Assembly (NCBI GenBank): GCA_964187785.1
Contig: OZ076409.1
Span: 24,306,001 to 24,370,000, forward strand
DNA from: Amphiscolops sp. MND2022
Lineage: Eukaryota
DNA: 64,000 bases
Reading direction: 5' to 3'
Positions 10,804 to 60,876 of this stretch are shown here, piece after piece. Position 1 is the first letter of the stretch; each line of letters begins with the position of its first letter. The position numbers were made by a program, and so were the translations under genes. The notes under the pieces were generated by a model that saw only the letters and a list, made by a program, of their open reading frames with translations, had not been told where the DNA came from and ran no database searches.

Positions 10804-10838
10804 TTCTTCTCTTCTTGATTGAACTCAGTTCACAAAGT

Positions 10839-11082: not shown

Positions 11083-11133
11083 AATCAGAGACTCCAAGAT
11101 CCAGACCCTTGTACTTCTTGGGCAATCTTCTCA

Positions 11134-11218: not shown

Positions 11219-11220
11219 AA

Positions 11221-16000: not shown

Positions 16001-17503
16001 AGGAAGCTTAGTTTAAAACCTGAGTCTAGCAAGTAATTTGAGGAAAGTAGAAATCTAATTAGCGAAATGTATTATGCTGAGAAGTATTTCAAGTTGATTG
16101 CCCCATAAATGATGCAACTCTTGCGTGACGTGAAAGATACAAAATCTCTTTCTTCTTCTTCACATGGCCGGGCAAATTTAATCATTTTTATTGTCTTTTA
16201 AAAAGAGAAACGTTGTCTGCGAATGAGATTCGCCTGTTGAAAATAAGAAGTAATTATAAATTTGTTTCTAAAGTCTCTATATTTATCAGCGTTGGATATA
16301 TTTATAATTACAAAATTTGAAATCTTATAAATATAAATAATGTTTTTTCCCTCAAAATTGCTTTCAACTTCTGGAATTCCTTAGATGGATAAATTAGGCA
16401 TGAAACTTTCAACGACATTGTCATTTAAATGCAATTCCATCAAGGCCCAAATTGATTTATAAAAATCAACACAATAATGCACGATTTTTCCCGAAAAAAC
16501 ATCTCGCATTCTGTTGGAAGCTTCCCGCGTCAATTAGGTCATAAATTTGGGGCATGTTCTTATTTTTCAATAATGAAATCGTCTGAAAGTAACTAGTTTC
16601 TTTCAGCAAACCAGACCATTGTTGCTTTTGGGTTCCTCAAGAATTTTCTGCGAATTCACGACAACAGAATAATTCTTTCCACGATCTCATTTTTTGTTGA
16701 AAAACGCCATATAAACTAGTCAGGAAAATGAATAGCTTTATTATCTAGTTTCAGTATTTAAAGCAAATCTCTCTAAAAATAGATATTCTAATGAGTTTTT
16801 TGTCCCCAATTTCATTGATCGTGTAAATGGATGGATGCAAGACTATTTTCACGCAGTATTTTTCACAATGAGGAAAAATGATCAATTGAGAGCAAACGAG
16901 AACGGAGAACTTTAATCATATAATTCCAGCTAGCTGAGAATTTAAGTCAATTTGGTACTTATTTTACGTTTTCGAGCTGAGCCGCCGCAGAATTGAGCCA
17001 CAAAATGAAGGAATTTAGTAGTCACAACAAAATGTCACAAAAACACTACTTGGATTTTGCAGTCTATAACTAATTAGCTATTACTGTACTAAATGACGTT
17101 CAACAATAATGATGTATATAAAGTCAAAACTATATTATCTGATTCTGGAGATGTTATTTTGGAATCTAGGAAAACTTGTCAATAACACTAAAGCGGAAGA
17201 CTCATCGCAAGGTACAGCAAATTTTCCATGCCAAGTATATGTGGGAGGCCAAGGTCAAACTGCCACATTTCATAACCTGAAATACTTTGGACAGAGAGTT
17301 GTGTAAATACTATTTACAAACAAATTCTAAGTGATTTCTGTCGCATTCATGTTAATGATTTGTTACCATATCATTCGATTGATAGAATACATTGAAGATC
17401 AGTTGAGAAAGATACATACTCCCCAACGTTGTTTTTAACCAACAATTTAGAGATCTTAACATGGCGCAGTAAGCAAGAATTTTTTTAATTCCATTCTTAC
17501 CCT

Positions 17504-18287
17504 GTGAAACCCTTTTTAACACCTCATCAACATAACAAGGCTGTGGCAACAAAGATACATCTACTATATCTAGAAGATACCGGACTTGACGGAAAGAAAC
17601 TACACACACCCAAAGAATGGACCGAACGATTTTGCCAATACATAAAAAAAATCCATGACATCGACATCAAACAAAAATTAACGGATGATACGGTACCCAC
17701 CGGCAAAAATTGGGACACAGAAGAACTAGAAAACAGACAAGATTTCATATGGAGCGCAAGACCATCAGCAGTCGAATTATCACAAAAGGAGAGTTAAACA
17801 CGGATCCCGATACAATCAAAACCAAAAAACCAATACAACTAGTCCGAAAATACTACATGCCAAGAAGGAACACCTACCATAGCTGTAGAGATTTCTTCTG
17901 GGCAAAGCAAGAAGACAATGAGACACCCGAAGAACACTGGAAAACGCTAATAACCCTAGAAAAGAACTGCGACTTCAAAGACATAAAACAGGACGTCCTC
18001 CTTATATCAAAGTTTATCACAACATAACCGAAAAAAAAAACTTCGAGAAAAGCACATCCGTGAAACTTTAGACTTGAAAACAAACGTTGAACTTGTCACC
18101 CAAAACAGTTACGACCGCCGACACAAGCAATCTACCATACCACTTGCCTTGGAAAAAGATGAAGAAATAAAACGAGAACCTATCCAAAAATTTCAGGCAA
18201 AACATCATCGAGAACAACGAAACCAATCGAAAAAAAATAATTGTGGATTCTGCGGACAACAGAACTGGACTCTTCAACATAACTTCA
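17504..18287 (+). pseudogene. Decayed gag of element 3
   Basis: Frameshifted fragments (FFWAKQEDNETPEEHW; knuckle CGFCGQQNW...H) directly after the PBS. Confidence 0.75.
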
Positions 18288-18562
18288 ACAAAAACACTAC
18301 TTGGATTTTTTGCAGTCTATAACTAATTAGCTATTACTGTACTAAATGACGTTCAACAATATAGGTGTATATAAAGTCAAAACTATATTCTCTGATTCTG
18401 GAGATGTTATTTTGGAATCTAGGAAAACTCGTCAATAACACTAAAGCGGAAGACTCATCGCAAGGTACAGCAAATTTTCCATGCCAAGTATATGTGGAAG
18501 GCCAAGGTCAAACTGCCACTTTTCATAACCTGAAATACTTTAGACAGAGAGTTGTGTAAATA
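18288..18562 (+). repeat. Copy of 17037-17309 (host flank plus the first ~70 bp of the 5' LTR) inside element 3
   Basis: Near-identical ~275-bp direct repeat; ORFs 17109-17306 and 18365-18559 translate almost identically. Confidence 0.9.
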
Positions 18563-20144
18563 ATACCGGCGAAAACAGTAAAGCGCCATCGCAAAACAAA
18601 CAATCGCCATTCCAATTTGACACTGACCGCTAATCAGATTCATACCAAAAAAATTAAACACATTACTCATCAACAGCAAAGAGCTATGGACGACAACAGC
18701 AATAACCGACAAAATACGGACAAATTCACTCACGACGGCGGATTGAAAATCCACTGGGGTGCAGATGACGAGATAATGAAAATCATAAACAGAAGAAATT
18801 ATTCCCAAGAAACCAGAGAGCTCGTCGAAAGAAAAATTGAACAGACGAGACCAGGCCCCATGCGATACCAGTGGCACAAAAAAACTAGATGGAGAAATTC
18901 TTCTCCCGAGAAGACCAGACGATGGCGACTGGAATGAATCAATAGGGCTCGGTATACGCCTACGAAGAAAAGAATAATGCCGCGACACACACCATGGGGG
19001 CGCATACTTCAAGCATTTCAAGTAATCCCACCAATGCCAGGAACATCAACCGAAACAAATCCGGATACAATGGGCACGCAAAAAATAATTCAAGACTCCG
19101 AATGGATGGTCCCCTCAACTCTTGAAGAACCGACAATCACGCAAGAACTGGGAACATACCCAGCGATCCCGGTACAACAATACCAAGACGGGCCAATCGA
19201 AAAAGTAGCCGTCTCTTATGTGCGGATAACCCGAGTTTTCGAGAAAAAAGCAATCAGAAACCGTCAACAAGAAGATAACATCCAGTCAGCCGAATATTTT
19301 ATGTTTGACCTGGAAACCCTCATTAAAGAAACGGCAACAGACCCTGACGTGATAGAAGTGCAATGGTGTCTAGAAGACAACAACACGCTGGCAAATCCCG
19401 AAGACTACGAACACGTGGCAAAGAAATTAACCCACCGCTGCTGGGGAATAACAATGGTCGACGACCGCATCATCGTCCCAAAAAATCTAGGCTATGCCGC
19501 ACTAAATGCACTATACTTCGGCCACCCAACAATCAACAAACTGTGCAGCGACGCAACAATCTTCTGGCGGCCAAACATGCGAGCTGATATTGAGAAGAAA
19601 GCCAAGACTTGTTCCACTTTGCCTAAATGCCGGTAAGAATTTTAAAACTCAACTACCCAATACCACAACATAAAAAATCGAACCGCCAAAAAACCCAGGA
19701 GAGGAAATTCAAACTGATTTCATGGGAAATCTAATTAGCAAACATATAAACTGCTCCACATTCATACTAGTTGCTGTGGATAAAAATAGCTGTTGGGCGG
19801 TAGCCACAATCTGCAAACATACAAACCGCGATAAGGTTATTAACTTCATACGGGAATACATAAACGTATACGGTGTACCAAAAATGCTTAAGTCAGACAA
19901 CGGCATGCCTTTGTCTCAAAAGAATAAAAAATGTTTGCAGGAATTACAATGTATTGTACACTCCAAATCTACATACCGGTACAGGACTCGTCCAGAGAAC
20001 CATCCAATCACTGAAGAACCTGATAGAAACAAATTTAGAAGAGATACAGGATTTACGCGAAAGCCTAAATGAATTATTGTATGTCCTCCAATTTTACCAC
20101 ACACGCAGAAACGAAGCAAACTCCTTTCGAAATACACTTCGGGC
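18563..20144 (+). pseudogene. Decayed pol (integrase region) of element 3; continues at 39819-40790
   Basis: Zn-binding FGHP...CST, then IQTDFMG and KSDNG. The motif TPFEIHFG|RK is split exactly by the element 4 insertion. Confidence 0.8.
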
Positions 20145-22707
20145 TGTCGCACGCATGGATAGATTTTACTATTTACTATTTCCTTTTTGTTCCCTTTTCC
20201 TTTCAAGGGGCTGTTCAGTTGTTATCAGTATTAGTCAGTTCAGCTTATGTAGCGTAGTGCAAATTACTTTCAGGTGGCTATTCTATTATTGATTGTAAAT
20301 GAGTAAGAAAGTCTCAAAGCTTACTCTGTGCAATAATAGAAAGGAAGTGCCTTGCGTGTACGTGCGAACAAAGGGAGTTGCGTGAATAAGTGCAAGGCAG
20401 TGTATGTAAATGAGTTATCTGAAAAGCGGAAAAGTATAGAAAGGAAATATGTTGAATTATATTACGTGAACGGACAATGGTACTAAGTAAAAATTTCTAG
20501 GCATCTCAGTGTCTATTCCATCTTTAGTTAAATCCAGCAGCGAAATAACAATTTACTTTACTTCAGCAGTAGATTGGAAGGATTTATTTCGACTTCGAGC
20601 AAAATAGCTTTATAAAATACATCAGAAACGATTAATATATATCAGAAAATTCGTAATAAAATTTACAGACTAAATTGTGAGCTTTTACACTTTCATAATG
20701 AAAATGCTTTATGATTAGCTCCAAATGAGAAATGGTTTTAGCCGGTGATAATTTAAACCAGCGAGTTTTAGTTTTTTTAAAGTCACTGCTCTGTTGGGTA
20801 GAGAGACAGCATTAGGACTTTGTATAAGACACAAACTCACTGGGTAGATGAGGTGAAATGATTTTGTAAGTACTAGTGTAACGCCAACCATTTATTTAGT
20901 ATTTTTCTAAGATATACTTTGAACAACCACTGAGTAAAATCAGTGGAACTTTTCTAAGATATATTTTAAACAACCACTGAGTAGAATCAGTGGAATTTTT
21001 CTAAGATATAAGTTAAACAACCACTGAGTAGAATCAATGGAATTTTTGTAAGTTATATTTTAAACGACCACTGAGTAGAATCAGTGGAATTTTTCTAAGA
21101 TATAATTTAAACAGCCACTGGGTAGAATCAGTGGAATTTTTCTAAGATATAATTTAAACAACCACTGAGCAGAATCAGTGGAATTTTTCTACGATATAAT
21201 TTAAACAACCACTGAGTAGAATCAGTGGAATTTTTTTGAGATATATTTTAAGCAATCACTGAGTAGAATCAGTTAAATTTTTCGAAGATGTAATTTAAAC
21301 AACCACTGAGTAGAATCAGTCGAATTTTTCTAAGATATAATTTAAACAACCACTGAGTAGAATCAGTGGAATTTTTCCAAAACATAATTTAAACAACCAC
21401 TGAGTAGAATCAGTGGAACTTTTCTAAGATATAATTTAAACAACCACTGAGTAGAATCAGTGGAATTCTCTAAAATATAATTTAAACAACCACTGAGTAG
21501 AATCAGTGGAACTTTTCTAAGATATAATTCAAACAACCACTGAGTAGATACAGTGGAATTTTTCTAAGATATAATTTAAACAACCATTGAGTAGAATCAG
21601 TGGAAGTTTTCTAAGATATAATTTAAACAACCACTGAGTAGAATCAGTGGAAATTTTCTAAGATATAATTTAAACAACCACTGAGTAGAATCAGTAGAAT
21701 TTTTCTAAGATATAATTCAAACAACCACTGAGTAGAATCAGTGAAATTTTACTAAGATAGAATTCAGTTAGGAAGGGGAGAATCAGAAATCTCCACAAAA
21801 AGAAACTAAGTTATTTTTTCACTCACCAGACCGGGGACTGTTGTCGGATTGAGGTGAATTCTCTAAGATAGAAAATTCAAGAAAGACGGATGTGACTTCG
21901 CAAATTTGAGAGCCAAAGCAAAAAAGGGGATGAAAGTAAGATAGAAGTTTTTAGTCCAAGGGGGAAATAATTCAAGAATTTAGCGGAGAGAAGATAAGTA
22001 GAGTTGGAGCAAGTTGAAGGGAAGAGAAGTAAAAGTGAGAAAGGGAGAGAGCTTTTTAGGTGTTGAAGCTCTGCCGGTTGGAGGGAAGAATGAAGCTCCA
22101 GCTTGTGCACGCCGTATAAAAACAGTTCAGCACTTCTACCGAAGTGCTTCATTGGCCTGTTTTTCGTTCAGCCAGTCAGAGCTTAGCATTAGATTTCGGA
22201 TCTCCGCGGTAAATAATAGAATTTTTCGTTTCTGTAATCCCGCGGTAGAAGAACCTTTTTTATCCCATTATTCTGCGGCCTTTTTATGAGTTTCAGCTGC
22301 CGCCCTACTTTAATAGTTATTTATCTTCAGCTTCCTCCTTCTCCAGGTTAGTTCAATTTCCTGCTTTGTTTATGCAGGTGTTTTTTAATCATAAACTACT
22401 CTGTAGCTCAAAGGAAATTGATTAGCTTTGTATTTTTGCAGGGGAATTTTTGATTAGAAACGGCTCTGAAGCCCTGGGTTGATAGTTGAGCTTTTTATTA
22501 AATCAGGTGTTTATAATCATAAACTGCGCGGTAGCACACAGAGAATTGATTAGCTTTGTATTTTTGCAGGGGAATTTTTGATTAGGAACGGAAGAGTATC
22601 CCTGGGATGTTTGTAGAGCTTTTTATTAAATCAGGTGTTTTTTGTTGAGCACTTTATTGTTGCAGTTGCATTTGTATTATTCATTAAGCGTTAGTCATAA
22701 CGCGACA
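20145..22707 (-). repeat. 3' LTR of element 4 (2563 bp)
   Basis: Direct repeat of 37208-39814, with an extra ~128-bp internal duplication at 22375-22631. Confidence 0.95.
20900..21760. repeat. 47-bp tandem array with palindromic core, 18 copies
   Basis: Unit aacaaCCACTGAgtagaaTCAGTGGaatttttctaagatataattta. Confidence 0.95.
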
Positions 22708-22814
22708 GCTCACCCCCCTGACAAAGAGAAAAGAGAATGCGGTATCTGGGGTAGGTCAGGAATGAAAATGGGGCCTCTTTAGCACTTGGGATTTTAAAGG
22801 GGGCTTCATTAAAT

Positions 22815-23804
22815 TTAATTGGAATTGTTGGAGTTGTTGTTTAAAAAGGCTTCCCTGAAGTTGACCAATAGTTTTGTGTGAGGGATGAAATCTTCTCGCA
22901 TGAGGTTAGGAAGAGTGTAGGTGCCGGCGTGGGTGTCGCCTTGGTTGTTCTTGTCAGAGTTGTTTGGGAAGTAGGTAGACCACTTGTTGTTTTTGTCTTT
23001 TTGATCTATGATGGAGATTTCTAATTGTCGGTCGAAAGGCCATGTTCGAGGGAGGGTGAAGTCGCTAAGATGGAGCTCACAGCAAATGGAGGAGTGGGTT
23101 CCCCAAAAGAGGTTTATCCCATATGGAAATAGTCTAAGGGATGTTTTGCAGCCTGCTAGGTGAGTGGTATAGATGGGGCTGGTGAAGCTACATTTGAAGT
23201 TGCTTAGTGGTTCATTCGGGAAGGTTTTTGCTTTTCGGTATAGCGTAGAAAATGCGGGAATCTGCCACAGGAAGGGTTCATTGTTTCTCCCATCGATGAA
23301 ATTAGTATTTCTGAGGAGGGAGCATTGGTATTTTATGGTTGCTTGTAAGTTGGATATTGTGGTCTCTAGTTGTAGACATCTAGTCTTTGCTTCTTCTGCC
23401 GAATTGTAGAGTTGTTTCACTTTGCCATCAATGTTCGTTTTAGGCTCTAAGGTTTCTGTTAATGAAAATGATTTCCAAAGGACCGGGGTTTCTAGTAGTT
23501 TTTCGTTTTGGCAACTTGATATGGTTGAGGTTTCTAATTCTGATATCCATTTGCTCAATCTTTCTATTCCCTCGAGAGTCTCTTGTTCTTCCGGGACATC
23601 TGGTTTCGATATGGGTGGCCAGTCGGGTGTAGTAATACGGGAAGAAGGATTATTTTTTGGGATAAAGGGCGTAGCATTAGGGTTTAGCCTATGATTCATT
23701 GTGCGGATATTGATCTTAGGGGGACAGTTAGTCTTTGTCCTTTGAGTGCAGGGTTCTCTATAGTGTATTCTTGTCTCTTGTTGTCCCAGAAAACGATGTT
23801 CCAT
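22815..23804 (-). CDS. Accessory protein: PAM2 motif + coiled coil + TRAF-type MATH domain (likely start 23699)
   Basis: LNPNATPFIP fits the PAM2 consensus. A heptad stretch (VKQLYNSAEEAKTRCLQLETTISNLQ) follows. FLWQIP.F, FTSPIYT...GCK.SLRLFPYG, GTHSSI, WPFDRQLEISIIDQ and FIPHTKL are colinear with TRAF-C motifs. Confidence 0.85.
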   Translation of the reverse strand: MEHRFLGQQETRIHYREPCTQRTKTNCPPKINIRTMNHRLNPNATPFIPKNNPSSRITTPDWPPISKPDVPEEQETLEGIERLSKWISELETSTISSCQNEKLLETPVLWKSFSLTETLEPKTNIDGKVKQLYNSAEEAKTRCLQLETTISNLQATIKYQCSLLRNTNFIDGRNNEPFLWQIPAFSTLYRKAKTFPNEPLSNFKCSFTSPIYTTHLAGCKTSLRLFPYGINLFWGTHSSICCELHLSDFTLPRTWPFDRQLEISIIDQKDKNNKWSTYFPNNSDKNNQGDTHAGTYTLPNLMREDFIPHTKLLVNFREAFLNNNSNNSN

Positions 23805-23903
23805 AATGAGAATTGGGGAAGTAGGGTATACTTTAAATCTGCATTGAACCTAGGCCTTTTAACATATCTGGCCCTTTTTGTATAGTATTCCCTTTTGTGT
23901 TGT

Positions 23904-24278
23904 TTATTTAGTGGTGCCTGGTCCGCTATCTCGTTGTTCCATTGATGGTGGTGTTTTCTGGGGAGGATTCTTTTTTATATTTTTTCCGCCGAATCGGGGT
24001 GGATGTTGGGTTGATGGTAAAGGTGCTACCTCTTCTGTGAACGACAGCGGGAAGGGGGGTCGCTCTGATGTAGTTGATGAGGGCGTTGTTGTATGTGCCC
24101 TTGGGGGTGGAGAAGGAACAGTTGAGTCTGGTGGGTCTAGGAGGAAGTTGATTGTTGTAGGGGATACTGGGGACAGCAGGTCTGATGGCGATAAGGGCTC
24201 AATTTCTAAGTCATCCTCTAAGTTAGGGTTAGGGTTGTCGTCGTCCAGGTTTGGTAGGTCGAAAATTGAGTCTAATTG
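23904..24278 (-). CDS. Putative spliced, acidic and Pro/Ser/Thr-rich accessory exon (124 aa, no 5' ATG)
   Basis: The open frame QLDSIFDLPNLDDDNP...GPGTTK* begins immediately after the acceptor-like TACTACTTTTAG. Confidence 0.45.
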   Translation of the reverse strand, partial: QLDSIFDLPNLDDDNPNPNLEDDLEIEPLSPSDLLSPVSPTTINFLLDPPDSTVPSPPPRAHTTTPSSTTSERPPFPLSFTEEVAPLPSTQHPPRFGGKNIKKNPPQKTPPSMEQRDSGPGTTK

Positions 24279-24314: not shown

Positions 24315-26453
24315 TTAAATTGGAGCTACGAAGCTCTGTACAGAGGGGTATAGTGATTCCTCTTTTTGTTTCAGATTTTGAAGTTCTACCGTTTTTATTT
24401 CGTCTTCCGTTTTTGTTCTTTCTTCAATGCTATCCTCGAGAGGGGCCCGCGCGGTGAATACGGAAGTTAAAACGGAGGTAAAGAAAAGATTGTACGAAGC
24501 ACAGAGCAAGGTTTTAGTGAAGCTCAGGGTATTACCAGTAAAGTGACGAAGTTCGAAATAGCGGAAGACTAGGACCGTGTTTTCTCTAACGAATTTAATA
24601 AAAAGAAAGGCGCCAAAATACGCGCCGCAGAGTTCGAGGACATACATATACTTCCGAAAGTTTCTAGGAATTGATTTTTGAAGTAGTCGGGTGATATCAT
24701 ACCGTCAACGTAAATATCGGTACGGGGTGCGTAATACGCAAATGATTCGGGTCCGCTATGGGCCATTGAAGGGATGATGAGTTCTCGTGAAAAGTTCTGG
24801 AGGGCATTTCGTGAAGCTGCGCTGATGAGGATGTTATCCCAAAATTCCGAGAGTTGTTCCGGCGTGTACATTCCTGCGTCTTGTGATCCAGGAAAGGATC
24901 TGGTAATCAGTGGTTGGATGTCCTTGGGTCCGGTGATAGCAGGTCGGTCACGATGTTCGGGTGAAGGAGTGAGGGTAAACCAGGAATCTTTGTCTTCCAT
25001 GTCCAGTTGGAAGAGGTTCTTAATGCGATCGCTGCAATTGTGCACGTTCGCATTAGGATAAGTCTGTCGGGTGATGGGGTCCACGAAGGCGACCACTCCT
25101 TTGTAGAAGATGGGTATGCGGTCGTAGCATTGGTTCATCGTGTGAAGAGTGGGATTCTGGGCAGTGGTAGAGCCATGCTAGGCTACCATCTGTGTTCAGG
25201 AACATTGAGCGATTTCCCGTGAGCATGTATCCGGCAAGTCGTGGGTTTTCCATGGAGAGCATCAAGATGGTGATGATTTGTGTTCGTTCTTGTTCACATT
25301 GAGCTTTCAATAGCTGGATTTCTGAAGCTTCAAGTAAGCGGGTGCTCTCAAAAAAGAGATAATCTAATTTTGTCCCTTGGTGGAGCTCGTAATCCACGTT
25401 AAGATAATGTGGTGTATTAGGGTTAGAGTCGCCGGGTCCTCTGAAGAGGTGGAGTCGGCCACTACCAGAACCATCGTCAGGTGAGTAATATTGAAGTTTA
25501 GATGTCTCGCCCATGGAGATGCCAAGTCTTCTGCCGGAGGTCATGTCAAAGCCACCAAGTTGGATTGAAACGTACAGGGATTCGTAGTTGGTCGAGTATA
25601 CATCGTCGGGTTTGTTGCAGTACTTTTGTGGTCTGTTGTAGACCTCGAAAAAAATTTTGGTAGTGGAATCGTTGCCGCTGACAATATAGTAGTTAGATCC
25701 GTGTTTGATCATGTTCACCATTTCTTTTCTGTGTACTGCAAGCACGCAATCATCAGGTTCTGCCCATGTGTATGCGTAGGGGTCCAGTGACGTCGTTTCA
25801 CAACCAAGTTGCTCCAAACGACAGGGAAGGATCATTTGAAATGGTGTGAGGACCTTTCCATCTCGGGTTTTGACCGATAACTCAGCGTCTTGAATGTGAG
25901 ATTCGAAAGTTTCGCGTTTGATCCATCCTCCTGTTTTGCACTCATTGCGGGTATCAGGGTCGCGTACCCCGTCCCAACTTTTTCCGTGTTTGGCGTTTCT
26001 CGTCTGTACTTGTTTCACTCCTTTCTTAAATCTAAGGAGTTGTCCATGGATTATGACTTCTTTTCCTTTACCCATTGCATTACAGGTTTCGGGGGACAAG
26101 GAAAGATCGCTGGTGATTCCGTTGTGTAGAATTGATATACTGGAGTGGTCGTGATGACCACAATGCCATTCTTCACTCTGATGTTTCACACGGCACATTG
26201 TGGCGTTGATAGTGCAGCGAAAGTGTTTAGTGTATAACGTTACGCTAGCACGACTTACTTCTAAGTTTTCTGGGGCCACATTGCATTGTTCTACTTGATT
26301 CAATGCGTAGAGCTTATTTTGGGTCATTTCGCCGCAGTCGAAATGAGTTACTCGCAATTTTTTAGCAACGCTAGCGAGGTTTGGCGTAGGGCGTTGTGAG
26401 ATCTCAACGGGCGCGTAATAGGCGCATAAAACGAGTAGGAAAAATAATTTCAT
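24315..26453 (-). pseudogene. Envelope glycoprotein, class III / chuvirus (Monjiviricetes) G-like, ~710 aa, two frameshifts (~25150, ~24645)
   Basis: Signal peptide MKLFFLLVLCAYYA; HFDC, HCGHHDHSS and CYDRIPIFY..FVDPITR motifs; many Cys; sequons (NAT, NDS, NRS, NCS); C-terminal hydrophobic anchor; located 3' of pol. Confidence 0.8.
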
Positions 26454-26512: not shown

Positions 26513-26789
26513 GGATCCGTTGTAAGGCCGTAAGAAGGCAAGCCGTAATATCAAACCGACAGCTTAGCTGGTACAACACTAAGCGGAGGTTAAAATTTTA
26601 TAGTAGTAACCTCACTACTGTTCACACGTACCTAAGAAAAAGAGAAGTCTGTTATTCTTTTAGTTGCAGTTAAGGTAATGGATCCTGGAGTAAAGCCGTA
26701 AAAAGGCAAGCCGTAATATCCAACCGGCAGCTTAGCGAGCACTGCGCTAAGCGGAGTCTAAAATTTTATAGTAGTAACCTCAATACTAT
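26513..26789 (-). ncRNA. Two copies (26513-26619, 26680-26789) of a ~108-nt structured element upstream of env
   Basis: Conserved hairpins with divergent loops; substitutions between copies are tolerated as G-U pairs on the minus strand. Confidence 0.55.
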
Positions 26790-26850
26790 TAGAAAAAGAG
26801 TGCCTATGAAGAGTATTTGAAAGAGACTAACTTCAACCATTTGTGAAGAT

Positions 26851-27195
26851 TCAGCTGTAATTGTCACTGATGAATTGCAGACTGGGAGAGGGTTTGTTTT
26901 TTCTTCTCGAGTCGATGAAGTCAATGAGTTTGTTGAGAAGGAAGAGTGTAAGAGGGTGAATGTGATTTAAGTATGCTATCTGTCTGTATTCCTTGAGGGA
27001 TTGAGCGAGAGCGGCAGCTTCTTGTGAGTCGGTGTCTACCGGGATGAGCCAGTGACCCGGTTGGTGTGGTCGAAGATTATCGATTTCTCTTTGGATCACA
27101 GGAGCGCTGTCCTTCCAAGCGATAGAGAGAATTTCTAAGAGGGTGTTCGTTTCAGGGTGGCGCCAGAGGAATTTGAGTTGAATCCTAAACATCAT
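26851..27195 (-). CDS. Orphan accessory ORF, 114 aa
   Basis: ATG-initiated; its start overlaps the stop of the preceding ORF. No recognised motif. Confidence 0.5.
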   Translation of the reverse strand: MMFRIQLKFLWRHPETNTLLEILSIAWKDSAPVIQREIDNLRPHQPGHWLIPVDTDSQEAAALAQSLKEYRQIAYLNHIHPLTLFLLNKLIDFIDSRRKNKPSPSLQFISDNYS

Positions 27196-27580
27196 AGGTG
27201 TCGACTAGGCTGTGAAGGTATTTGATTCTAACTTCTTCTTCGAAGGGGTTGGAGGTGAGAGTGATGTCCATAAAATAAACCAAGTCGTCGAAAGCCTTGT
27301 CTTTGAGGACGGCGGGGTGTTGGAGTATGTATTGCTTGAACGAAAGGAATTAGTAGGCGTATTCCTTGGACCCGAAGTGAATAGGGAAGAGGACTAGAGC
27401 TTCTTTGTCTTCTGGCGTGAGTATACGAACTTGAATCGCAGAGGTAGTGATCTCGTAGAAGATTGACTGTATTTCGTATTGGCCCTTGAGTTGTATGGGC
27501 GTCCAAGGAACAGGAGGTTGAAATTGGGTGTGGAAGTAGTAATTATTTCCGCGGAATACAGCTACTGCGGGAGAGGACAT
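27185..27580 (-). pseudogene. Orphan accessory ORF (~131 aa) with one in-frame stop at 27350
   Basis: MSSPAVAVFRGNNYY...EYAY*FLSFKQY...VDTYDV*. TATA-like TATATAA lies ~50 bp upstream. Confidence 0.5.
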
Positions 27581-28042: not shown

Positions 28043-28663
28043 ATGACTTTATCAGTAGCTACTTTGCATTTAGTAATGAGCAGCAATAACACTAATAATC
28101 TTGCCCCTAGTGGGTCGTCGGGCGTTACGGCCTCTACTACATCTACTGTCGTCGTCTCTTCTTCGTCTGCTGCTGTTATGTCTTCCTCAGTAGTGTCTGT
28201 GGCCGGGCCTAGTCGCCCGGACACATCAGTACCAGTGAGTTCTGCCGCTCCGCCTGTTAGTCGTCTGGCCGGTAGGCTAATACCGGGTCATCTCAACAAC
28301 TACGACAGAGAGACATTTATGGATCTGTATGATTGGGGCGATGTCAGGCGACTAGAGGGATGGGTGGAGACTAATAGAGACACAAGGGGGGTTCGGGGTT
28401 ACATGGTTGTCCGGGCCCCCATCTCGGATGCTTTTGCATCGTTTTTGTTGCAGTTGTATGAGCGACCCTGGGAGTCAAGACTTCTGGCGGGGCAGGGGGA
28501 AGTTCTCCTGTTCCAGCTCAGGAGTTATATCCTGGGGTATTCGCGTTTAACTACTTATCAGAGGGGCCAGTTTCGTCGACTGTGGCCCGCCTGGACCAAC
28601 GAGGAGAGGCGTAGCCAGCTAGAGAAGTTGGCTAGTTTGGGGGGCTTTGTAGAGCTGGAGTAG
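28043..28663 (+). CDS. Antisense accessory ORF, 206 aa (Ser/Val-rich N-terminus, globular-looking C-terminus)
   Basis: Intact ORF opposite to the element sense strand, preceded by a GTAAGC...TTTTAG mini-intron (27990-28036) and TATAATA at ~27897. Confidence 0.65.
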   Translation: MTLSVATLHLVMSSNNTNNLAPSGSSGVTASTTSTVVVSSSSAAVMSSSVVSVAGPSRPDTSVPVSSAAPPVSRLAGRLIPGHLNNYDRETFMDLYDWGDVRRLEGWVETNRDTRGVRGYMVVRAPISDAFASFLLQLYERPWESRLLAGQGEVLLFQLRSYILGYSRLTTYQRGQFRRLWPAWTNEERRSQLEKLASLGGFVELE

Positions 28664-28813: not shown

Positions 28814-29224
28814 CTAGGAGCTAGGTGAGGAGATAGTGGAGCAGCAGAATAGGTCCTTTTGGGTATTAGGTAGAGAAGGTTGTAGGTCAGGTATTAGGGT
28901 AGGCATGTAGGATAGGAGTTCTTCTAGGATAGAGTCGTGGTGTGTGACTGCATAGTATGCGAGGTGTTGATATAAAAGAACAAAGGTCTTAGATTCTGGG
29001 CGTATAGGTATGTTTGATTTTCGGGGCGTTGGTTGTTTATTATAGCTCGGGTCTGGGTCTTTAGAGTAGAAGCAAATCCTAACTAGCTTGTTTGTGTAGG
29101 TCCAGTAGATTTTTGTGATTGTTACATTGAGAATGCCTAAGGACTGAAGTTCTCGTGGAACTTGCCAGGGCAAATTTAGATATACTTTATGGCATGGCAT
29201 GGTAAGGTTATTCTTTGTAACCAA
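28814..29224 (-). CDS. Orphan accessory ORF after integrase, ~128-136 aa
   Basis: Open frame directly downstream of the pol C-terminal region. No recognised motif. Confidence 0.45.
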   Translation of the reverse strand: MVTKNNLTMPCHKVYLNLPWQVPRELQSLGILNVTITKIYWTYTNKLVRICFYSKDPDPSYNKQPTPRKSNIPIRPESKTFVLLYQHLAYYAVTHHDSILEELLSYMPTLIPDLQPSLPNTQKDLFCCSTISSPSS

Positions 29225-29348: not shown

Positions 29349-32300
29349 TTAAGTTGAAGACGCCTGGTTGTTAGTTAGTCGTGCTGGAGTTGGATGACGT
29401 TGTGTCAACGTTAAAATAGGGGTTGCGGTGTCTCGAGGATGTGAGGTCGAAGGCTGATCGGGAGTCTGTGGGGTTGCCAACAACTGATTTTCTGGAGAGA
29501 TGATACCAGAGTCTGTGCTCAGTGGGGTCTGCTCGTTTTTGCGGATAAGTATTTGATCTTGTTGGGTCCGAACTGGCAATATGCAGAGATCTCCGAGTGT
29601 TTGTGCTTCTGAAACATTAAGTTGTTCAATTCTTCCTTTGACGAAATTGTTATAAAAATCTTTGTCTCCACGATGGGGAGTTGTGTATTCTTCGATAAGA
29701 GGGGGGAGTGTTTCTATCAGGTGATTTCTATGTACAGTTCGGAGATTCTCGGGATTTCGATCTTCTGTTATTTGGTAAGTTGTGTTGGTGATTCTCTTGG
29801 TAACTGTAAAGGGTCCTAATCTTAGTTGCTGAAGTTTTTGACTTTTAGAGAGATCCTTTCGATGGTTTTCTAGCAGGACCTTTTGTCCTATGTTCAGGTG
29901 GTTTCCGAGTTTAAATCTGTTTCTGTAGGCGTGTGATCGAGCTTTTTATTGTCTGCAATTTTCATATGTGGATGAGTAGATCTTTTTGAAGACTGTTTCT
30001 CTTTCCAGCAAGTTTTGTGATAGTTGTGGTCGTAATAGTCCATTTACTTGGTTTCCACTATGACGGTGTGGAAGTAGTCCGTTACAGAACTGTGATTTAC
30101 AGTTCTTGTTTTTATTCCTATATAGTCCCAGCTTCAGACTCATAGATATTTGTGGTTTGTTGCAGAACACTATCTCGTAGGGGGTCTTTCCTGTTGTGTA
30201 GTTAACGCTAGTGTTGTGGGCGAATGCAAATTTAGCGGCTAGTTGGGCCCAGTTGTTTCCTGATTCATTTAAGATGTTTCTCCAGTATCTTGCGATGTGT
30301 TGGTTTTGCGTCTCGACTTTGCAATTTGTCCAGGGTGAGTGTGCAGTTCTTGGTCGAAGAGTAATGCCAAACTCTTTCGTCCAGTTGACGAACTCAGTGT
30401 TTACAAAAGCTGTTCCTCTATCATGTATGATGGATTGCGGTATCCCATAGTGAATTATCCATTTTTCCATTGCGTTGATTGTTGATTGTGCTCCTGTGTC
30501 TTGGACCGGATATGCCATTAAATAACGCGAGAATGCGTCAATGATGAGAAGGCAGTGTGAATTTCTACGACTGGGAGGGTTGAGTGGTCCCTTGTGATCG
30601 ATATGAACTGTTCTGAATACTTGAGTTTCGATTTCACAGTCTTCCAGTGGGACTTCGTTATTTCTTCTTTGTTTGGATTTGTTAGACTGGCAGCTAACGC
30701 AGTCTTGTGTGAGGGCACAGATCCAGTCGTGCATTCCGGGCCAGTAGTAGAGTCTTTTAGCATTTAGGTAAGTTTTCTCAGCCCCCATATGGCCGCCCAG
30801 GTCGTTGTAATGTCCCATACGGAAGCAAGTTAGAAATGGAGAGAGAGGTAGGCAGATTCTCAGGTTTTCGTCTGCCGGGTCGTCAGTTGGCTCGTTGTAG
30901 CAGAGGAGATTTCCCTGTTCTTCTATAGTTAGTCGGTCAAATTCCTGAAAGTATCGCATGAGGACTTTCGAGTGTTGTAACTCTGGTGACTTTGGCGTAG
31001 GCTTGTTTCCTGTCTTCATCCATTGTCGGACCACACTGAGGACTGGGTCATTAATTTGTTCTTGTAAAATTGTTGTGACGTTTAGCTCCGCTTCTTTGGA
31101 AATCTTATCGAGTTGGCCTATGAGTTCTCGAGTTGATGTCTTTTGTTTTCCTGTAGTGGTTTTAAGGAGCTCGTAATTTTCAATTGCCTTATCATTTTCG
31201 GAGGTACATTGTTTGAGTGTCGGGGAACTCGTATTAGGCCCATAATTTGTTTCGTTCACTTCTTGACGTTCGTCATCTGCGAGGGCTTTGTCGTCTGCGT
31301 CGCTGTTAACCGAGCTGTAAGTATTTTGTGATATATCGGAGGTGCTTTCTCGCGTGCCAGATCTGATTCGTAGCTCTTCGTAATTTCTAATTTCTTTTCC
31401 GGCGTCAAAACAACTTTGCGCCGATTCAATCTTCGGCAGGTTAGGTTCCTCGTAGACATTGTTGACTGTGAAGTTATTACCGTCATTTTGTAGGTGAAGG
31501 ATTTTCCGTTCATCCCCCTTTTCGTACAATATAGGGTAGAAGTCATTCTTTGAAGTTTCGTCGTTTTCCTCGTGTTTGATTTTGTTGTGAACTTGAGTCC
31601 CGTGCTCGTCGAAGAAGTGTATGTCGTTGGGTAGGATCTTGTGGCTAAGTTGGTGTTTCTTGTGTTCTTCGATTGAGACATTTCGGCTGAGTATATCGGG
31701 GAAGGCTAAATTGCTTCCCGGCGTCCATATTATCTTTAGATTGGGAAACTTGGAAATAATCACTTGGTACCTAAAGAATCGCGGTGAAACCTGTCCTTTT
31801 TGTCCCCAGAGATAAAGAATTGGTTTATGGTCACAGTATAGGTAGATCGGGACATCCAATGATATAGTGCTCGTATGTTTGTAGTGCTGAGACTATTCCA
31901 CATAGTTCTCTATGTAGTGTGGACATCTTTTGTTCTTCTTTTGCGAAAATTCTGGAATCGAAAGAGATGATCCGTTTTCCTTCTGGAAATTGTTGTATGA
32001 GTATACATCCTGTCCCTACGTGTGACGAGTCTACGTGTATATGAAATGGGTATTTCGTTGAAGGTACTACAAGAACCGTGTCTTCGCAGATTCTCTTCTT
32101 TATTTCTTGGAAGAGGTCTTCGTGTTCTTGTTTCCAACAAAAGTTTGTATCTTTCTTGGCAGCTCGTAGAATGGTCGACTATAGACATGTAGATTCTTGA
32201 TGTAACAGCTATAAAATCCCAGAGCCCTAGAAGCTCTTTACCTCAGTTTTCGTTCTTGGCGATTTAAGATTGTGAAGATCCCTGACTCGTTTAACTACAG

Positions 32301-34728
32301 GTTGTATTCCTTCTGCTGCAATTACATGTCCCAGGAACTTGACTTTTCGCGAGAAGAATAGTGTTTTGTCGGGCGCTGCCTTGCGTCCTGCTTTCCGTAG
32401 TAGGTCATGGTATTCTTGGATCACTGTGAACATCTCTTGTTTGTTTTTGGCCTGCATTAACGTGTCGTCTATGTAGGTAATTGCGTGTTTCTTCTTGATG
32501 AGGTTTCGCCTTGGTTCGAAATGGATTGTCATCATACGGCTGAAGAAGCTGGGTAATCCTTTAAGTCCTCTGGTAAATGTATATTGTTTACCGCCAATTA
32601 TGAAGCTAGTGAGCTTCTGTGTGGGCTCGTCTAGTGGGACTTGGTGAAAAGCGCAAGAGAGATCGCTTACTGAGAATATTTTTCCGTTGATGAGCGTCAT
32701 TATGGTTTGGATTGGTTCCAAGGGCCAGGAGTAGTTTGTCAGATCAGTCACTGAATTCAGGTATCTTGCGTCTATGATCAGCTTGACGTAATCATGTTTT
32801 GGTTGTAAGATGATGAGGTTTACGAATAGAGATCCATTTCGTCGTCATCGCCCATCTCTCTTATGATGTCAGCCTCTTTGAGTTGTGTTAGTAGTTTTTC
32901 TAACTTTTCTCGTAAGTGTAGTGGTACTTTACTAGGTCTCTGTCTCTTCAGAATTGCTCCCCGTTCTAGTTTAATGTTGAATTTCTGTCTAGTTTTCCCA
33001 ACATCGAACTTGTGTTGTGAAAATACATCTCTAGCATCCATCAGTAGGTCTATGAGGAGAACAAGTTCTTCGTCTGTGAGGTCCGAGTAGCGAAAGTCGA
33101 ATTCTTTGATGTATTGAACTGCTTCTTTATTCTGATATTGAAGATAGTATTCAATGAGTCGTTCGTTGTCTTCTTTGGGCCTAAATATCTTGAATTGTTC
33201 GTCACAAGGTGGTTGGCAGGACCTTGCATCTTTAGTAAAGTCAGTTTCCAGTTCTCTGTGCTTCAAGTGAAATTCCTCTGGAAATTGTTGTATTTCATCT
33301 TCTACTGCATTTTCAGGGTCTCCTCTGGTAGTCATTGCATAGACATCTAGCTCGTTTCTGGTATAGATTCGGAGCTGCATTTCTGTGTAGGCAAAGACGT
33401 CTTGAATAATTTGCGTAACATCTTGCCATTGAAAGTCCTCTAGTTCTGAGGCTTCTCGTAACATAAAAACAGTCTTGATATTATTCAATTTGGCGTGGGC
33501 TTTTAGTGTTTTCAGCGATTGGGCTAAGATTTGTGGGTCGATTTTGTCTTTTGATTTAGCCTTAGTGATTAAGACGTATATAAATCCCCTTAGAGTTGTA
33601 TCCCAGAGGGTATTGTGTCGCCTTTTTGAGGTTTCTGTTTTGCGCAAGAGTCTTTCAATGAAGGTATATTCGTTAAAATTACTTTAGAGAAGCTTTTGGC
33701 TGGTTTTAGGTCAGCCGGAACAAAGATAGGTCAGCCGGATAGGTCAGCCGGATAGGTCAGCCGGATAGGTCAGCCGGAACAATAGAGTCTGGTCTGTTGA
33801 GTATTGTTGTAGAGTTTCCTCCTTCTATTCTGATGCAATCGTTAAGATCTTGTGAAGGGATAGTAGCGTGTAGTAAAAAGCAATCGTTGTATTCTTCATT
33901 TTCGCTTAAAATGGTGTAAGCGAGTTCGGTAGGATTCCTAATCTGATTATTTGGGATTTCTTTGTCAATGACGTCTAGCATAGAGTATCCAATAGTTCCT
34001 TTAACTAGTGTGATTGTATGGTTCTTGTTGTTTTCCATAACAATTGGCAAAGTCTTCTCAAACCGTGTACAAAGGACGTTTGTGAAGTTGAGTCCTGTAG
34101 AAACTGCCTTTCTGTTTGGAAGGAATGTAGATCCGGGAGGGAAGGAATTTTTCGCGTTTTCGAAGGCAAATTTGTAGCATCTTGTTGTTTTCGGCTCAAT
34201 GAACATGGAGTGAGGGATTTTGAATGTTAATATTTGCGAAACATAGGGGTATACTTTGTTTAGTTGAAGGCTACCATAGCAGAAGGTATTTAGAGGTCTC
34301 TTGAGCTCTATGTCGGGGAGGTCGAAATGTATTTTGTTGATCTGCTCTTGGCAGAAATTCATTCCAAGAAAGTTTTGTGTCTTCATCTCGGTGATCCAGA
34401 CTGTCAGAGGGAAGTTATGTTGGCCGTCGGAGTCATAATAGAGTCTTAATGGAATGTATCCCATCATAGGGTTGATTTGACCAGAGTTGTTACGAGTTGT
34501 GTTGTTGCTCCCGCTGAGTTCGAGGTCTTGTTGAAATTGGCAAACTTCTCTAAATGTCTTATAGTTGATGATTGAAGATGTTGCCCCAGTGTCAAGTAGA
34601 AATTCGATTTCCAAGCCACTATCTTTTTGTGAGTCTTCGGCAGCAAAATAATAAAGATTAAGATTAAATTTTAGTGGGGCACTGCTGCTACTTTTATTTT
34701 TCGGAGACCTTAGTAGTTTAAAGGACAA
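29349..34728 (-). pseudogene. Gypsy pol (PR - macrodomain - RT - RNase H - IN) with multiple frameshifts and stops
   Basis: LLDTGA; SDLSCAFHQV and YIDD; VDSS, CDHKPI and PDILSR; GGHMG...CVSC; HIDHKGP; HDRGTAF; GPF motif at ~29810. Confidence 0.93.
33362..33810 (-). other. TARG1/OARD1-like macrodomain within pol
   Basis: FIYVLITK.K.KDK....LAQSLKTLKAHAKLNNIKTVFM.R...LE.FQWQDV.QIIQDVF..T.MQLRIY parallels the TARG1 pattern YIYYLITK...LQKSLEAMKSHC...MPRIGCGLD.LQW.NV..MIEEVF..T.IKITVY. Confidence 0.8.
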
Positions 34729-34862
34729 AAATCGGCTACTGAGTTCACTGAGTAGTCAGTTTCTAAGAATTGTACTGTGTTGGATCTTCCCACGTCGTTA
34801 GTTTTTGGGAATCTTTGCTCGTAAGACTGAGTAGGGGTGTTGGGTCTTTCGTTTCTGTTTTG

Positions 34863-36166
34863 TTATTGTCTCTGAAAAACTGACTTTTTCCTTGGTGGAA
34901 AGGGTTGTATGTTGCGATTAAAAGGGTTAGGCTGGTCTCTGTTGAAGTTAAAGGGAGATCTAGCTCTCTGTGGTCCTGGAGAAATGCTTCTGGGTCTGTT
35001 AGAATTATTGGGAAAAGGTCTTCTAACCTCTTGCGAAAATCTCTGGTTACCGGAGCTGAATCTAGTATTTGTAGATCTGCGTTCTGGGTTAAAGTTTCTG
35101 TTCTGAGATCTGTCAAATCGGTTCCATGAAGGGGTTGCTTGCATGGCTCCCGCAAGTGCCAGTTGATGGGCAACCGCCATATTTTTTCGGATCTTTGAAT
35201 CGGGTAGTCTTGTCTGAAATCTTGAGCCATGCCCAGGTCCAGTTCTTTTGTTGTAATCGTTGGTGAATATTATTCTTCTCTCTGCATTCCTTCGTTTTGA
35301 ACCTTCTTGACTTCCTCATCTCTCATCTTTTTTCTGCACCAGTTAGGTGTGTGCCCATTTGTTCTGCAGTAGCTACAGAATCGAGTGGCCATTCTTCGTC
35401 CTGTAGCATTAGGGTCTACTGTTTTCTCTACTGCGTTGATAGTATTATTCATCTGTTCCTTGATTTGTAGTTTAATTCCCTTTAGGTCGTCTCGCATTTC
35501 TTGTATGAGTGGGTCTTCGTGTGACTCTCCGCCAGTTAGGGCGGTAGTTACAGTGTAGGAAAGGTCTTTGTTTATTACTGCTTGTGAAAATTGCTCCCAG
35601 GTTGCATTCGGGTGGTCCATCAGATATTCGTGTGCCTTTTCTCTCAGCTTTGGAGGTCTTAGGCCTCTCAGGGAGTAGTCAATGCACCTCTGTCTTCTTT
35701 GTTTGTCTTGAGTTGTCCTTTCAGCGTCTCTATTGTTCTTTGCGACTCCGGCTAGGTCATCTGGCCATCCTTTTCCAACTACTATTTTAATTCTGTGTAG
35801 GAAGTTCTTTATTTCTTCTCCATCTCGTCTGATGACATGTTCGGCTTCCATTCTGTGTCTAAATTTGTTTCTGCCATCTGCGAATCGTGTGATGAACCTT
35901 TCTCTGATTTCTGCCCAAGTGTTAGCGTCTGTGATGCTGGTCTCGAACCACTCCGCTGCGGGTCCTCTTAATAGTGTAGCAAAGTAGGATTTTCTTCTGA
36001 AGTTGTAGTCATCAAGTGCTGGTCCGTTGGCTGGGGTATCACCATGAGAAAACCGGAACTTCTTTTCAATGAGCTGTATAAATTGTTCAGGATCTTGATC
36101 TGGGTCGGTTCCTGTGAATTGGTCTCGGCCGAAGTCTGGATAAGCCAAGTAATTTTGCGCAGCCAT
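34863..36166 (-). pseudogene. Gypsy gag; intact to 35270, then a frameshifted Arg/Ser/Asn-rich tail
   Basis: FTG.DP.QDPEQFI, LLRGPAAEWF, W.EIRERFITRF and the CCHC knuckle CSYCRTNGHTPNWC. Confidence 0.9.
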
Positions 36167-37207
36167 TGTAAGCTGTTGAAAATATTAGAGAAAGAAAATG
36201 TAGCAACGAATAATAAATTAAAGATTCGATTAGGTAGGATACTCCAGGTCTCTGTAAATAACCACAAACGACTAAGGTAAAACACGCTCTTGCAAGAGTT
36301 CTAAAGATAATAAGAGCTAGGCAGGTCTGGCTTTGCATATACTCAATAGTATGCAAAAAAAATTTTAAGATCTCACCTCTCAGCTTAGGAGACGTTAGTC
36401 CTCCGGGTTTAATACTTCAATCCTAAAATAATAGGGGATACTTACAAATCCCGCTAACTTTAAATGATTAACAGAAAGGGCAGTTCGGGGTATACCAATC
36501 CTCCGATTTAACCAAAAAAAATGTGGAGAATACAATCGGTTTCAAAAGGTACTCAATTCGCTAGTCTAGCCTTTCAATGGCTTTTGTAGAAGTAATACAA
36601 CAAACAAACAGAGGGAGGCACTCTCGTCCTCAGGATTAAGTAGCGAGGGGCCAAGATCACTATCATGCAAACACTAGGGTACTATCACTAGAAATCTTAG
36701 AATTCTAGGTTTCCACCTTGGAATGCTACACAGGTTCCGGGACACCCACTGGGCTCATGGCCTTCAATCAGCCTCCGAAGAGACCTAGGCGGGCTTTTCC
36801 TTAATATGTGTCCGTCTGGACTTGAGTGTACATCCCAACTGTAGGTTTAGATTCAGTGTTAGAAAGCAGTTTCATTCTTGTTTTAGGACCGAATGTAGTC
36901 TAGCATTTCTGCAAAAGTAAGTTAGCTCTAACCTTTTGGGGATTGGGAGGACTAATTTGAGTAGTGCACAGTCTCTTCCTAAAGCTTTTAAGCTGGAGAG
37001 ATTCTGTTGGAGTTTTTACTAGCAATTCTATGAATTATAAAGACCAAGGAAGCCACATGTTGGGGCAGTAGGAGAAAAAAGAAAATCAGAAGTAATGTTA
37101 AGAGAAACAGGTAGTAAACCCTAACTTCTTAGAGTAGGGATTCTAACAGATAGCTCATTTATTTCTCTACTAAGAGTAAAAAGGGTGCCTCACTGGTCGC
37201 ACCAGTT

Positions 37208-39814
37208 TGTCGCACGCATGGATAGATTTTACTATTTACTATTTCCTTTTTGTTCCCTTTTCCTTTCAAGGGGCTGTTCAGTTGTTATCAGTATTAGTCA
37301 GTTCAGCTTATGTAGCGTAGTGCAAATTACTTTCAGGTGGCTATTCTATTATTGATTGTAAATGAGTAAGAAAGTCTCAAAGCTTACTCCGTGCAATACT
37401 AGAAAGGAAGTGCCTTGCGTGTACGTGCGAACAAAGGGAGTTGCGTGAATAAGTGCAAGGCAGTGTATGTAAATGAGTTATCTGAAAAACGGAAAAGTAT
37501 AGAAAGGAAAAATGTTGAATTATATCACGTGAACGGACAATAGTATTAAGTAAAATTTTCTAGGCATCTCAGTGTCTATTCCATCTTTAGTTAAATCCAG
37601 CAGCGAAATAACTATTTACTTTACTTCAGCAGTAGATTGGAAGGATTTGTTTCGACTTCGAGCAAAGTAGCTTCATAAAATACATCAGAAACCATTAATA
37701 TATATCAGAAAATTCGTAATAAAACCTACAGACTAAATTGTGAGCTTCTACACTTTCAAAATGAAATTGCTTTATGATTAGCTCCAAATGAGAAATGGTT
37801 TTAGCCGGTGATAATTTAAACCAGCGAGTTTTAAGTTTTTAAAGTCACTGCTCTGTTGGGTAGAGAGACAGCATTAGGACTTTGTATAAGACACAAACTT
37901 ACTGGGTAGATAAGGTGAAATGATTTTGTAAGTACTAGTGTAACGCCAACCATTTATTTAGTATTTTTCTAAGATATAAGTTGAACCACCACTGAGTAGA
38001 ATCAGTGGAACTTATCTAAGATATATTTTAAACAACCACTGAGTAGAATCAGTGGAATTTTTCTAAGATATTATTTAAACAACCACCGAGTAGAATCAAT
38101 GGACTTTTTCTAAGATATGTTTTAAACGACCACTGAGTAGAATCAGTGGAATTTTTCTAAGATATAATTAATTCAGCCACTGGGTAGAATCAGTGGAATT
38201 TTTCTAAGATATAATTTAAACAACCACTGAGTAGAATCAGTGGAATTTATCTAAGATATAATTTGAACAACCACTGAGTAGAATCAGTGGAATTTTTTTG
38301 AGATATATTTTAAACAATCACTGATTAGAATCAGTGAAATTTTTCTAAGATATAATTTAAACAACCACTGAGTAGAATCAGTGGAACTTTTCTAAGATAT
38401 AATTTAAACAACCACTGAGTAGGATCAATGGAATTTTTCTAAGATATATTTTAAACGACCACTGAGTAGAATCATTGGAATTTTTCTAAGATATAATTTA
38501 AACAGCCACTGAGTAGAATCAGTAGAATTTTTGTAAAATATATTATAAACAACCACTGAGTAGAATCAGTGGAATTTTTCTAAGATATAATTTAAACAAC
38601 CACTGAGTAGAATCAGTGGAATTTTTTTAGATAAATTTTAAACAACCACTGAGTAGAATCAGTGAAAGTTTTCTAAGATATAATTTAAACAACCACTGTG
38701 TAGAATCAGTGGACTTTTTCTAAGATATAATTTAAACAACCACTGAGTAGAATCAGTGGAATTTTTCTAAAATATAATTTAAACAACCACTGAGTAGAAT
38801 CAGTGGAATTTTTCTAAGATATAATTTAAACAACCACTGAGTAGAATCAGTGGAATTTTTCTAAGATATAATTTAAACAACCACTGAGTAGAATCAGTGG
38901 AATTTTTCTAAGATATAATTTAAACAATCACTGAGTAGAATCAGTTGAGTTTTTCTAAGATATATTTTAAACAACCACTGAGTAGAATCAGTGAAATTTT
39001 ACTAAGATAGAATTTAGTTAGAAAGGGGAGAATCAGAAATCTCCACAAAAAGAAACTAAGTTGTTTTTTCACTCACCAGACCAGGGACTGTTCTCGGATT
39101 GAGGTGAATTCTCTAAGATAGAAAATTCAAGAAAGACGGATGTGACTTCGCAAATTTGAGAGCCAAATCAAAAAAGGGGATGAAAGTAAGAGAAAGTAAG
39201 AGAGAAAGTAATTTAGCGGAGAGAAGATAAGTAGAGTTGGAGCAAGTTGAAGGGAAGAGAAGTAGAAGTGAGAAAGGGAGAGAGCTTTTTAGGTGTTGAA
39301 GCTCTGCCGGTTGGAGGGAAGAATGAAGCTCCAGCTTGTGCACGCCGTATAAAAACAGTTCAGCACTTCTGCCGAAGTGCTTCATTGGCCTGTTTTTCGT
39401 TCAGCCAATCAGAGCTTACCATTAGATTTCGGATCTCCGCGGTAATTAATAGATTTTTTTCGTTTGTGCAATCCCGCGGTAGAAGAAACTTCTTTTATCC
39501 CATTATTCTGCGGCCTTTTTATGAGTTTCAGCTGCCGCCCTACTTTATTAGTTATTTATCTTCAGCTTCCTCCTTCTCCAGGTTAGTTCAATTTCCTGCT
39601 TTGTTTATGCAGGTGTTTTTTAATCATAAACTACTCTGTAGCTCAAAGGAAATTGATTAGCTTTGTATTTTTGCAGGGGAATTTTTGATTAGAAACGGCT
39701 CTGAAGCCCTGGGATGATAGTTGAGCTTTTTATTAAATCAGGTGTTTTTTGTTGAGCACTATATTGTTGCAGTTGCATTTGTATTATTGATTAAGCGTTA
39801 GTCATAACGCGACA
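37208..39814 (-). repeat. 5' LTR of element 4 (2607 bp)
   Basis: Followed on minus, after 3 nt, by the PBS at 37188-37204. Confidence 0.95.
37960..39010. repeat. 47-bp tandem array with palindromic core, 22 copies
   Basis: Same unit as 20900-21760. Confidence 0.95.
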
Positions 39815-60856: not shown

Positions 60857-60876
60857 TAAAGAGGGATGGAGGGGGT

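Follow-up and report, generated by a model that had tools for sequence, protein, structure and literature searches.

A class III fusogen-like env gene in Ty3/Gypsy elements of the acoel Amphiscolops sp.

The env-bearing element of the window

The window is a 64,000-nucleotide stretch of contig OZ076409.1 from Amphiscolops sp. MND2022 (assembly GCA_964187785.1, positions 24,306,001 to 24,370,000 of the forward strand). The mitochondrial COX1 of this assembly, read with genetic code table 5, matches acoels best among named hits (75% and 73%), against 67% or less for other phyla; a more distant acoel, Paratomella, reaches 62%, no better than other phyla. By COX1 the host is thus likely an acoel, on the strength of the first two named matches. 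It carries a 19.7-kb Ty3/Gypsy element with LTRs, a 4-bp TSD and a tRNA-Met primer-binding site, situated on the minus strand; the features given below are on this strand unless stated otherwise. The 5′ LTR (37208..39814) and the 3′ LTR (20145..22707) both show TGT...ACA ends, and the K2P distance between the two is 0.030 with the internal tandem array left out. The TSD, GGGC, is found at 20141-20144 and 39815-39818. The primer-binding site (37187..37204) is complementary to the 3′ end of the host tRNA-Met(CAT), with the same site in all five other copies examined, and a polypurine tract is present at 22708..22720. Each LTR contains one array of a 47-bp tandem repeat (20890-21770 and approximately 37960-39010); arrays in the other families of the element differ in period.

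The gag region with a zinc knuckle (34760..36166) and the pol region (29349..34755) display Gypsy-type Pfam domains in the order gag, PR, RT, RNase H, IN, with an additional macro domain between PR and RT. PF03732 is found in gag of unbroken copies. The best PDB match of the RT is the Ty3 RT (E-value = 1.8e-28), with foamy and other retroviral RTs behind it. The domain order, the TG...CA LTRs, the short TSD, the tRNA primer-binding site and the polypurine tract are those of Ty3/Gypsy elements (Metaviridae). A BEL/Pao identity was considered and rejected, as Peptidase_A17, DUF1759 and DUF5641 are absent from the env-bearing element; all three are displayed by a BEL element of the same window, which served as control. 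The env gene sits between IN and the 3′ LTR. The window copy is dead, with gag, pol, env and ORF-X (an open reading frame directly behind env) all broken.

The element sits within the integrase region of an older, decayed Gypsy-like element (17055-20144 and 39819-41078), into which it was inserted. The window also contains two BEL/Pao elements with LTRs, at 3528-12167 and 53446-62712. The first of these carries an unbroken 2133-aa open reading frame and a 24-bp tandem repeat at 10782-11117. Two related open reading frames of 160-210 aa, unassigned as to kind, are found at 563-1054 and at 60877-61500 (minus strand), the latter placed between the 5′ LTR and gag of a BEL element.

The env gene, its copies and its predicted fold

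The env gene occupies 24315..26453, with the ATG at 26453 and the stop codon at 24315-24317, and is annotated here as a class III (gB/chuvirus-G-like) fusogen gene. The window protein is encoded in three pieces and shows the motifs HFDC, CGHHDHSS and CYDRIPIFYKGVVAFVDPIT. When the window DNA is aligned with a natural, unbroken copy found elsewhere in this genome (97% nt identity), the reading frame shifts at just two points, near 25149 and 24645, and the two pieces that follow them share 98% and 92% identity with it. The alignment agrees with the two frameshifts of the initial annotation, and the signal peptide, C-terminal transmembrane segment and motifs it had listed are all present in the window or in the unbroken copy. 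A 101-nt direct repeat (26522-26622 and 26690-26790, 86% identical) lies just upstream of env and is possibly a regulatory or splice element.

The unbroken env is 714 aa in length, with hydrophobic segments at residues 1-21 and 601-637 by hydropathy. It displays the signal peptide, large Cys-rich ectodomain and C-terminal transmembrane segment typical of class III fusogens. All 14 ectodomain cysteines are conserved, each in 87-100% of the alignment rows that span it. A furin-type site is absent from the unbroken protein, which has four sequons for N-glycosylation. The cytoplasmic part carries a YPx-hydrophobic motif, visible in most full-length relatives, which may act as a sorting or ESCRT-type signal.

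A search of the organism's own genome (1.07 Gb) with env gave 98 matches, and in 67 of these the frame is open for 710 aa or more and the matched part is free of stop codons. The matches come from 97 scored candidates out of 7092, and the count of 67 leaves out one partial match. A full env open reading frame of 714-715 aa is present in 25 of the 30 loci fetched. At least four env-bearing families are found. Families A, B and C show 92-96%, 71% and 57% identity to the window env piece, respectively. Family D (locus L061) was reached by way of ORF-X, has dozens of near-identical ORF-X matches, and was not listed by the first env search; the env copy counts are therefore lower bounds. All four families show gag-pol-env, the same primer-binding site, 4-bp TSDs and a length of 17.8-19.2 kb. 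LTR pairs are 98-100% identical in six other copies of families A-C and 99.8% identical in family D. Sister copies with unbroken pol and env exist. By the working definition used in PMC13524379, which asks for an intact gag, pol and gB-type env within a multicopy Ty3/gypsy element, these sister copies are gB-type errantiviruses; the window copy is a broken one.

The env dN/dS ratio is 0.035-0.053 in three family-A pairs, as against 0.064 (pol) and 0.066 (gag); in comparisons across families, dS is saturated in most cases. Env is thus under strong purifying selection, which shows its importance to the element but is no proof of membrane fusion. The many unbroken copies of the env-bearing family likely still move between cells.

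Pieces 1 and 2 of the window env match the Pfam family PF24664 (Monjiviricetes_fusion) above cut-off (E-value = 1.3e-11 and 5.5e-12), and the unbroken env matches it with an E-value = 2.5e-32. The top match in the ESM Atlas is a Monjiviricetes_fusion cluster (0.97), followed by gB and rhabdovirus G clusters (0.93-0.96); the recognition score of 1577 lies below the guide value of 2300 and is weak when taken alone. A PDB sequence search with the env profile gave nothing up to an E-value of 10, and only the fold search gave matches.

An AF2 model of the unbroken env, built from 102 sequences, has a pLDDT of 78 and a pTM of 0.56, and displays hairpins and a long central helix at residues 355-400. 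With Foldseek, all PDB matches listed are herpesvirus gB, the best being HSV-1 gB (E-value = 2.5e-14). Among predicted viral structures, chu-like, xinmovirus and qin-like glycoproteins are on top (E-value = 3e-32 to 3e-27, 12-18% identity), and the first herpes gB is found at rank 25 (E-value = 5e-15). VIA aligns the model with gB over 436 residues (Z = 11.8, rmsd 17.8), with the isolated gB domain IV over 163 residues (Z = 7.2, rmsd 3.4) and with Mokola G (Z = 7.2). Global TM-scores are 0.2-0.4 with an rmsd of 13-35 Å, so that the match is one at the domain level and not one of a single conformation; low scores of this kind are to be expected when a flexible fusogen is modelled as a monomer.

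The model shows the fold common to gB and rhabdovirus G, and the unbroken sister env is predicted to fold as a class III fusogen. No class I or class II fusogen and no cellular protein is found among the fold and family matches listed for env. The best structural match by Foldseek or VIA is likewise of neither kind, a point on which the initial annotation had staked its reading. Pfam, language-model features and the fold search all support that reading, a chuvirus/Monjiviricetes-like class III envelope in a Gypsy element. The acoel env resembles the G proteins of Jingchuvirales and Xinmoviridae in its PF24664 family and its best Foldseek matches, but it is encoded by a reverse-transcribing element, and its identity to the viral G proteins among the matches listed is only 12-18% even though PF24664 is matched above cut-off. 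No L or N gene is present among the element open reading frames scanned.

Accessory open reading frames

ORF-X (23696..24278, frameshifted in the window copy) consists of an acidic/Pro-rich N-terminus, a basic stretch and a conserved core of about 75 aa. In families A and B it lacks an ATG, and a pyrimidine tract with TTTAG precedes the open frame. This start is found in all 30 family-A loci, which are related copies and not independent, and also in family B. Families C and D show an AG followed by a close-by ATG at the ORF-X start. On this sequence evidence ORF-X is likely a spliced regulatory protein.

Close homologues of ORF-X number only three in the protein search, and no Pfam family and no usable ESM Atlas match were found. 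Weak homologues are situated behind env in four metagenome loci (tblastn E-value = 3e-4 to 0.02) and share invariant residues; ORF-X may be conserved in distant relatives. These homologues (L051, L052, L054, L057) show a C-terminal coiled coil, and L052 carries two of them, at 9876-10754 and 11223-12092. A model of the core has a pLDDT of 73 and yields Tudor/SH3/KOW-like matches (best Z = 4.0, Foldseek E-value of at least 0.4), which are too weak for a fold assignment, and none is claimed.

A TRAF-like open reading frame (22815..23699) follows, with a coiled coil and a MATH domain; no RING or zinc fingers were seen in it. It is found 3′ of env in all four families, matches TRAF1/TRAF5 in the PDB (E-value = 4e-13) and has a dN/dS of approximately 0.18 within family A. 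Its ATG is fused with the stop codon of ORF-X into ATGA in families A and B, an overlap which suggests stop-start translation of the TRAF frame; in the same families its N-terminus carries a weak PAM2-like motif. The last residues of the window TRAF sequence differ from those of unbroken copies.

The macro domain between PR and RT (33360..33584) is TARG1/OARD1-like (E-value = 6e-9) and degenerate in the window copy. Its GCGLD stretch is lost in families A and B. The family D domain (locus L060, about 6800-7230, plus strand) is canonical-looking with an E-value = 2.5e-24. The macro-domain motif was not found in a metagenome contig that carries a related gag-pol-env element.

Two or three small orphan open reading frames are present between IN and env, with dN/dS of 0.06-0.08 within family A, and similar ones are found in families C and D. 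In the window these are ORF a (28814..29200, about 128 aa) and ORFs b and c (26851..27580), with a premature stop in b. They show no Pfam match and no credible PDB match. The three are possibly paralogous; hhalign gives probabilities of 84%, 17% and 8% among them, and one of the alignments mixed two types of open reading frame. Kinship with ORF-X was rejected, as it is unrelated to them on comparison. Sre/serpentine and TcdB_midC matches were also rejected, being below cut-off.

An antisense open reading frame of about 195 aa (28076..28663, plus strand) displays a Ser-rich N-terminus and a conserved C-terminus. It is common to families A and B, with dN/dS of 0.15-0.32 at a dS near saturation, and has no Pfam match.

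Known systems, and the origin and role of env

PMC13524379 (Chary and Hayashi, eLife 2026) describes 'ancient errantiviruses', Ty3/gypsy elements with an HSV/gB-type env, in cnidarians, ctenophores, tunicates, nematodes, flatworms and arthropods, and reports 114 arthropod gypsy elements that were retrieved by using chuvirus-like BEL/Pao sequences as baits. The acoel elements share with them the gag-pol-env order, a Ty3/gypsy RT, an env with signal peptide, ectodomain and transmembrane segment, the class III fold, conserved cysteines, multiple near-identical copies and an env co-diverging with pol. They differ in a pol-env gap of 3-4.6 kb with orphan open reading frames, and in the ORF-X and TRAF frames 3′ of env. 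Xenacoelomorpha is absent from the genome list of that paper, and word searches gave 0 matches for it in the supplements and none for TRAF, MATH, macro or accessory in the main text. Three short motifs of the acoel family also have no match in the supplements, the long cells of which were covered in part.

The novelty that the initial annotation had implied for a class III env in Gypsy is not supported, as gB-type env is already described in that paper for Ty3/gypsy elements of many phyla. The same paper disputes the origin of errantivirus env from baculovirus F, which the annotation had taken as given. The statement that a chuvirus-like glycoprotein was captured by BEL/Pao elements agrees with PMC7642597, where a Pao-chuvirus hybrid, Anakin, is described in mosquitoes.

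Anakin (PMC7642597, PMC10084718) resembles the acoel element in that its LTRs enclose a class III glycoprotein of chuvirus-like type. However, the acoel element is Gypsy and not BEL/Pao, and its env is distant from every viral G. In PMC10084718 no clear case of a Gypsy capture was found for arthropods. The Burro/GYPSM1 giant gypsy of planarians (PMC6431247) also combines env and a captured MATH/TRAF-C domain in a Gypsy element. In Burro, env is in frame between gag and pol within a polyprotein of about 4,900 aa, whereas the acoel env is a separate 3′ open reading frame and the acoel TRAF a separate one with a stop-start overlap. Fish epsilon-like ERVs with macro-domain open reading frames and foamy-like ERVs with accessory ones (PMC4977317) are likewise env-bearing with extra open reading frames. 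Those ERVs are Retroviridae, while the acoel TARG1-type macro domain lies inside a Gypsy pol, in the PR/RT interval. A literature search on acoel/Xenacoelomorpha env elements, TRAF in LTR elements and Gypsy macro domains, with subscription journals and Repbase outside its scope, gave nothing describing the acoel family. Each ingredient has precedent; the combination, ORF-X and the host phylum are without precedent in the literature searched.

A profile search with env gave 1755 proteins at an E-value of 0.001 or better and 318 at 1e-30. In the metagenome contig that carries a gag-pol-env element, env is 41-44% and RT-RH 68-73% identical to the acoel elements. For six elements the RT tree agrees in shape with the env tree; one branch is open and the outgroup is long. 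Env and RT thus diverge in step in these sequences. The initial annotation had left two possibilities, an independent capture of a negative-strand RNA virus-type G by Ty3/Gypsy or an old shared ancestry. With an identity to viral G of 18% or less and an env diverging in step with RT, old shared ancestry fits better than recent capture, and env would have been acquired long ago and have diverged together with pol.

An improbable alternative is that an acoel Gypsy captured the G gene of a chuvirus or another mononegavirus fairly recently, in its own lineage and independently of the other gB-type errantiviruses. It could draw on the chu-like and xinmovirus G structures, which match env far better than herpes gB does (E-value = 3e-32 vs 5e-15), on the PF24664 match above cut-off and on the similar event reported for mosquito Pao elements (PMC7642597). 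However, the 12-18% identity to viral G compares with 41-44% to a distant Gypsy env in the same gene order, the step-wise divergence with RT argues against it, and gypsy elements widely carry gB-type env (PMC13524379). A scan of viral contigs also speaks against it, as 67 pattern matches included 0 relatives.

As to function, the window env is a frameshifted copy, and its unbroken sisters quite probably encode a class III (gB/chuvirus-G-type) fusogen, as predicted from the model, that lets particles enter other cells. Env would enter the secretory path by its signal peptide, be anchored by its transmembrane segment and trimerise. The conserved cytoplasmic YPx-hydrophobic motif may sort it to budding sites. 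It would then coat particles and fuse them with target membranes, giving entry into neighbouring cells. The spread would probably be from soma or stem cells to the germ line, by analogy with Drosophila gypsy (PMC13524379). ORF-X, made from a spliced mRNA, may boost expression of the element, and the TRAF frame acting as a decoy, together with the macro domain, may dampen host signalling or defence.

Env could instead be kept for a role other than entry, such as receptor interference, cell-cell fusion or a function that benefits the host, with the element copying itself inside the germ line. Solo chuvirus-like glycoproteins have been proposed as domesticated in mosquitoes (PMC7642597), which lends this some precedent. 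The acoel env, however, stays within full elements, in many young copies and four families, and is as constrained as pol. Such a pattern would be expected if every new insertion requires env, and a non-entry role is very improbable, more so than the recent capture discussed above.

A class III env in Gypsy is already known and adds little alone. What is new is the acoel host (Xenacoelomorpha), the presence of at least four families, the many open env copies, the low env dN/dS of about 0.04 and the unusually rich, conserved accessory set. With the locus, Xenacoelomorpha joins the phyla that carry Gypsy elements with a gB-type env, and it is a lineage of importance for the dating of env acquisition. 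The dozens of young unbroken copies offer a system for testing how a gB-only element gains entry to cells. The conserved accessory genes point to a capacity of invertebrate Gypsy elements to evolve the kind of regulatory and immune-modulating layout known from complex retroviruses. A wider reading is tentative and, taken as a whole, somewhat unlikely. It would make the acoel elements complex, currently infectious invertebrate endogenous retroviruses with a class III env, a spliced ORF-X, a RING-less TRAF decoy translated through stop-start coupling and a macro domain of the TARG1 type that undoes antiviral ADP-ribosylation. If true, Metaviridae would have a counterpart to the accessory layout seen in foamy and delta retroviruses, and this in a phylum that branches near the bilaterian base.
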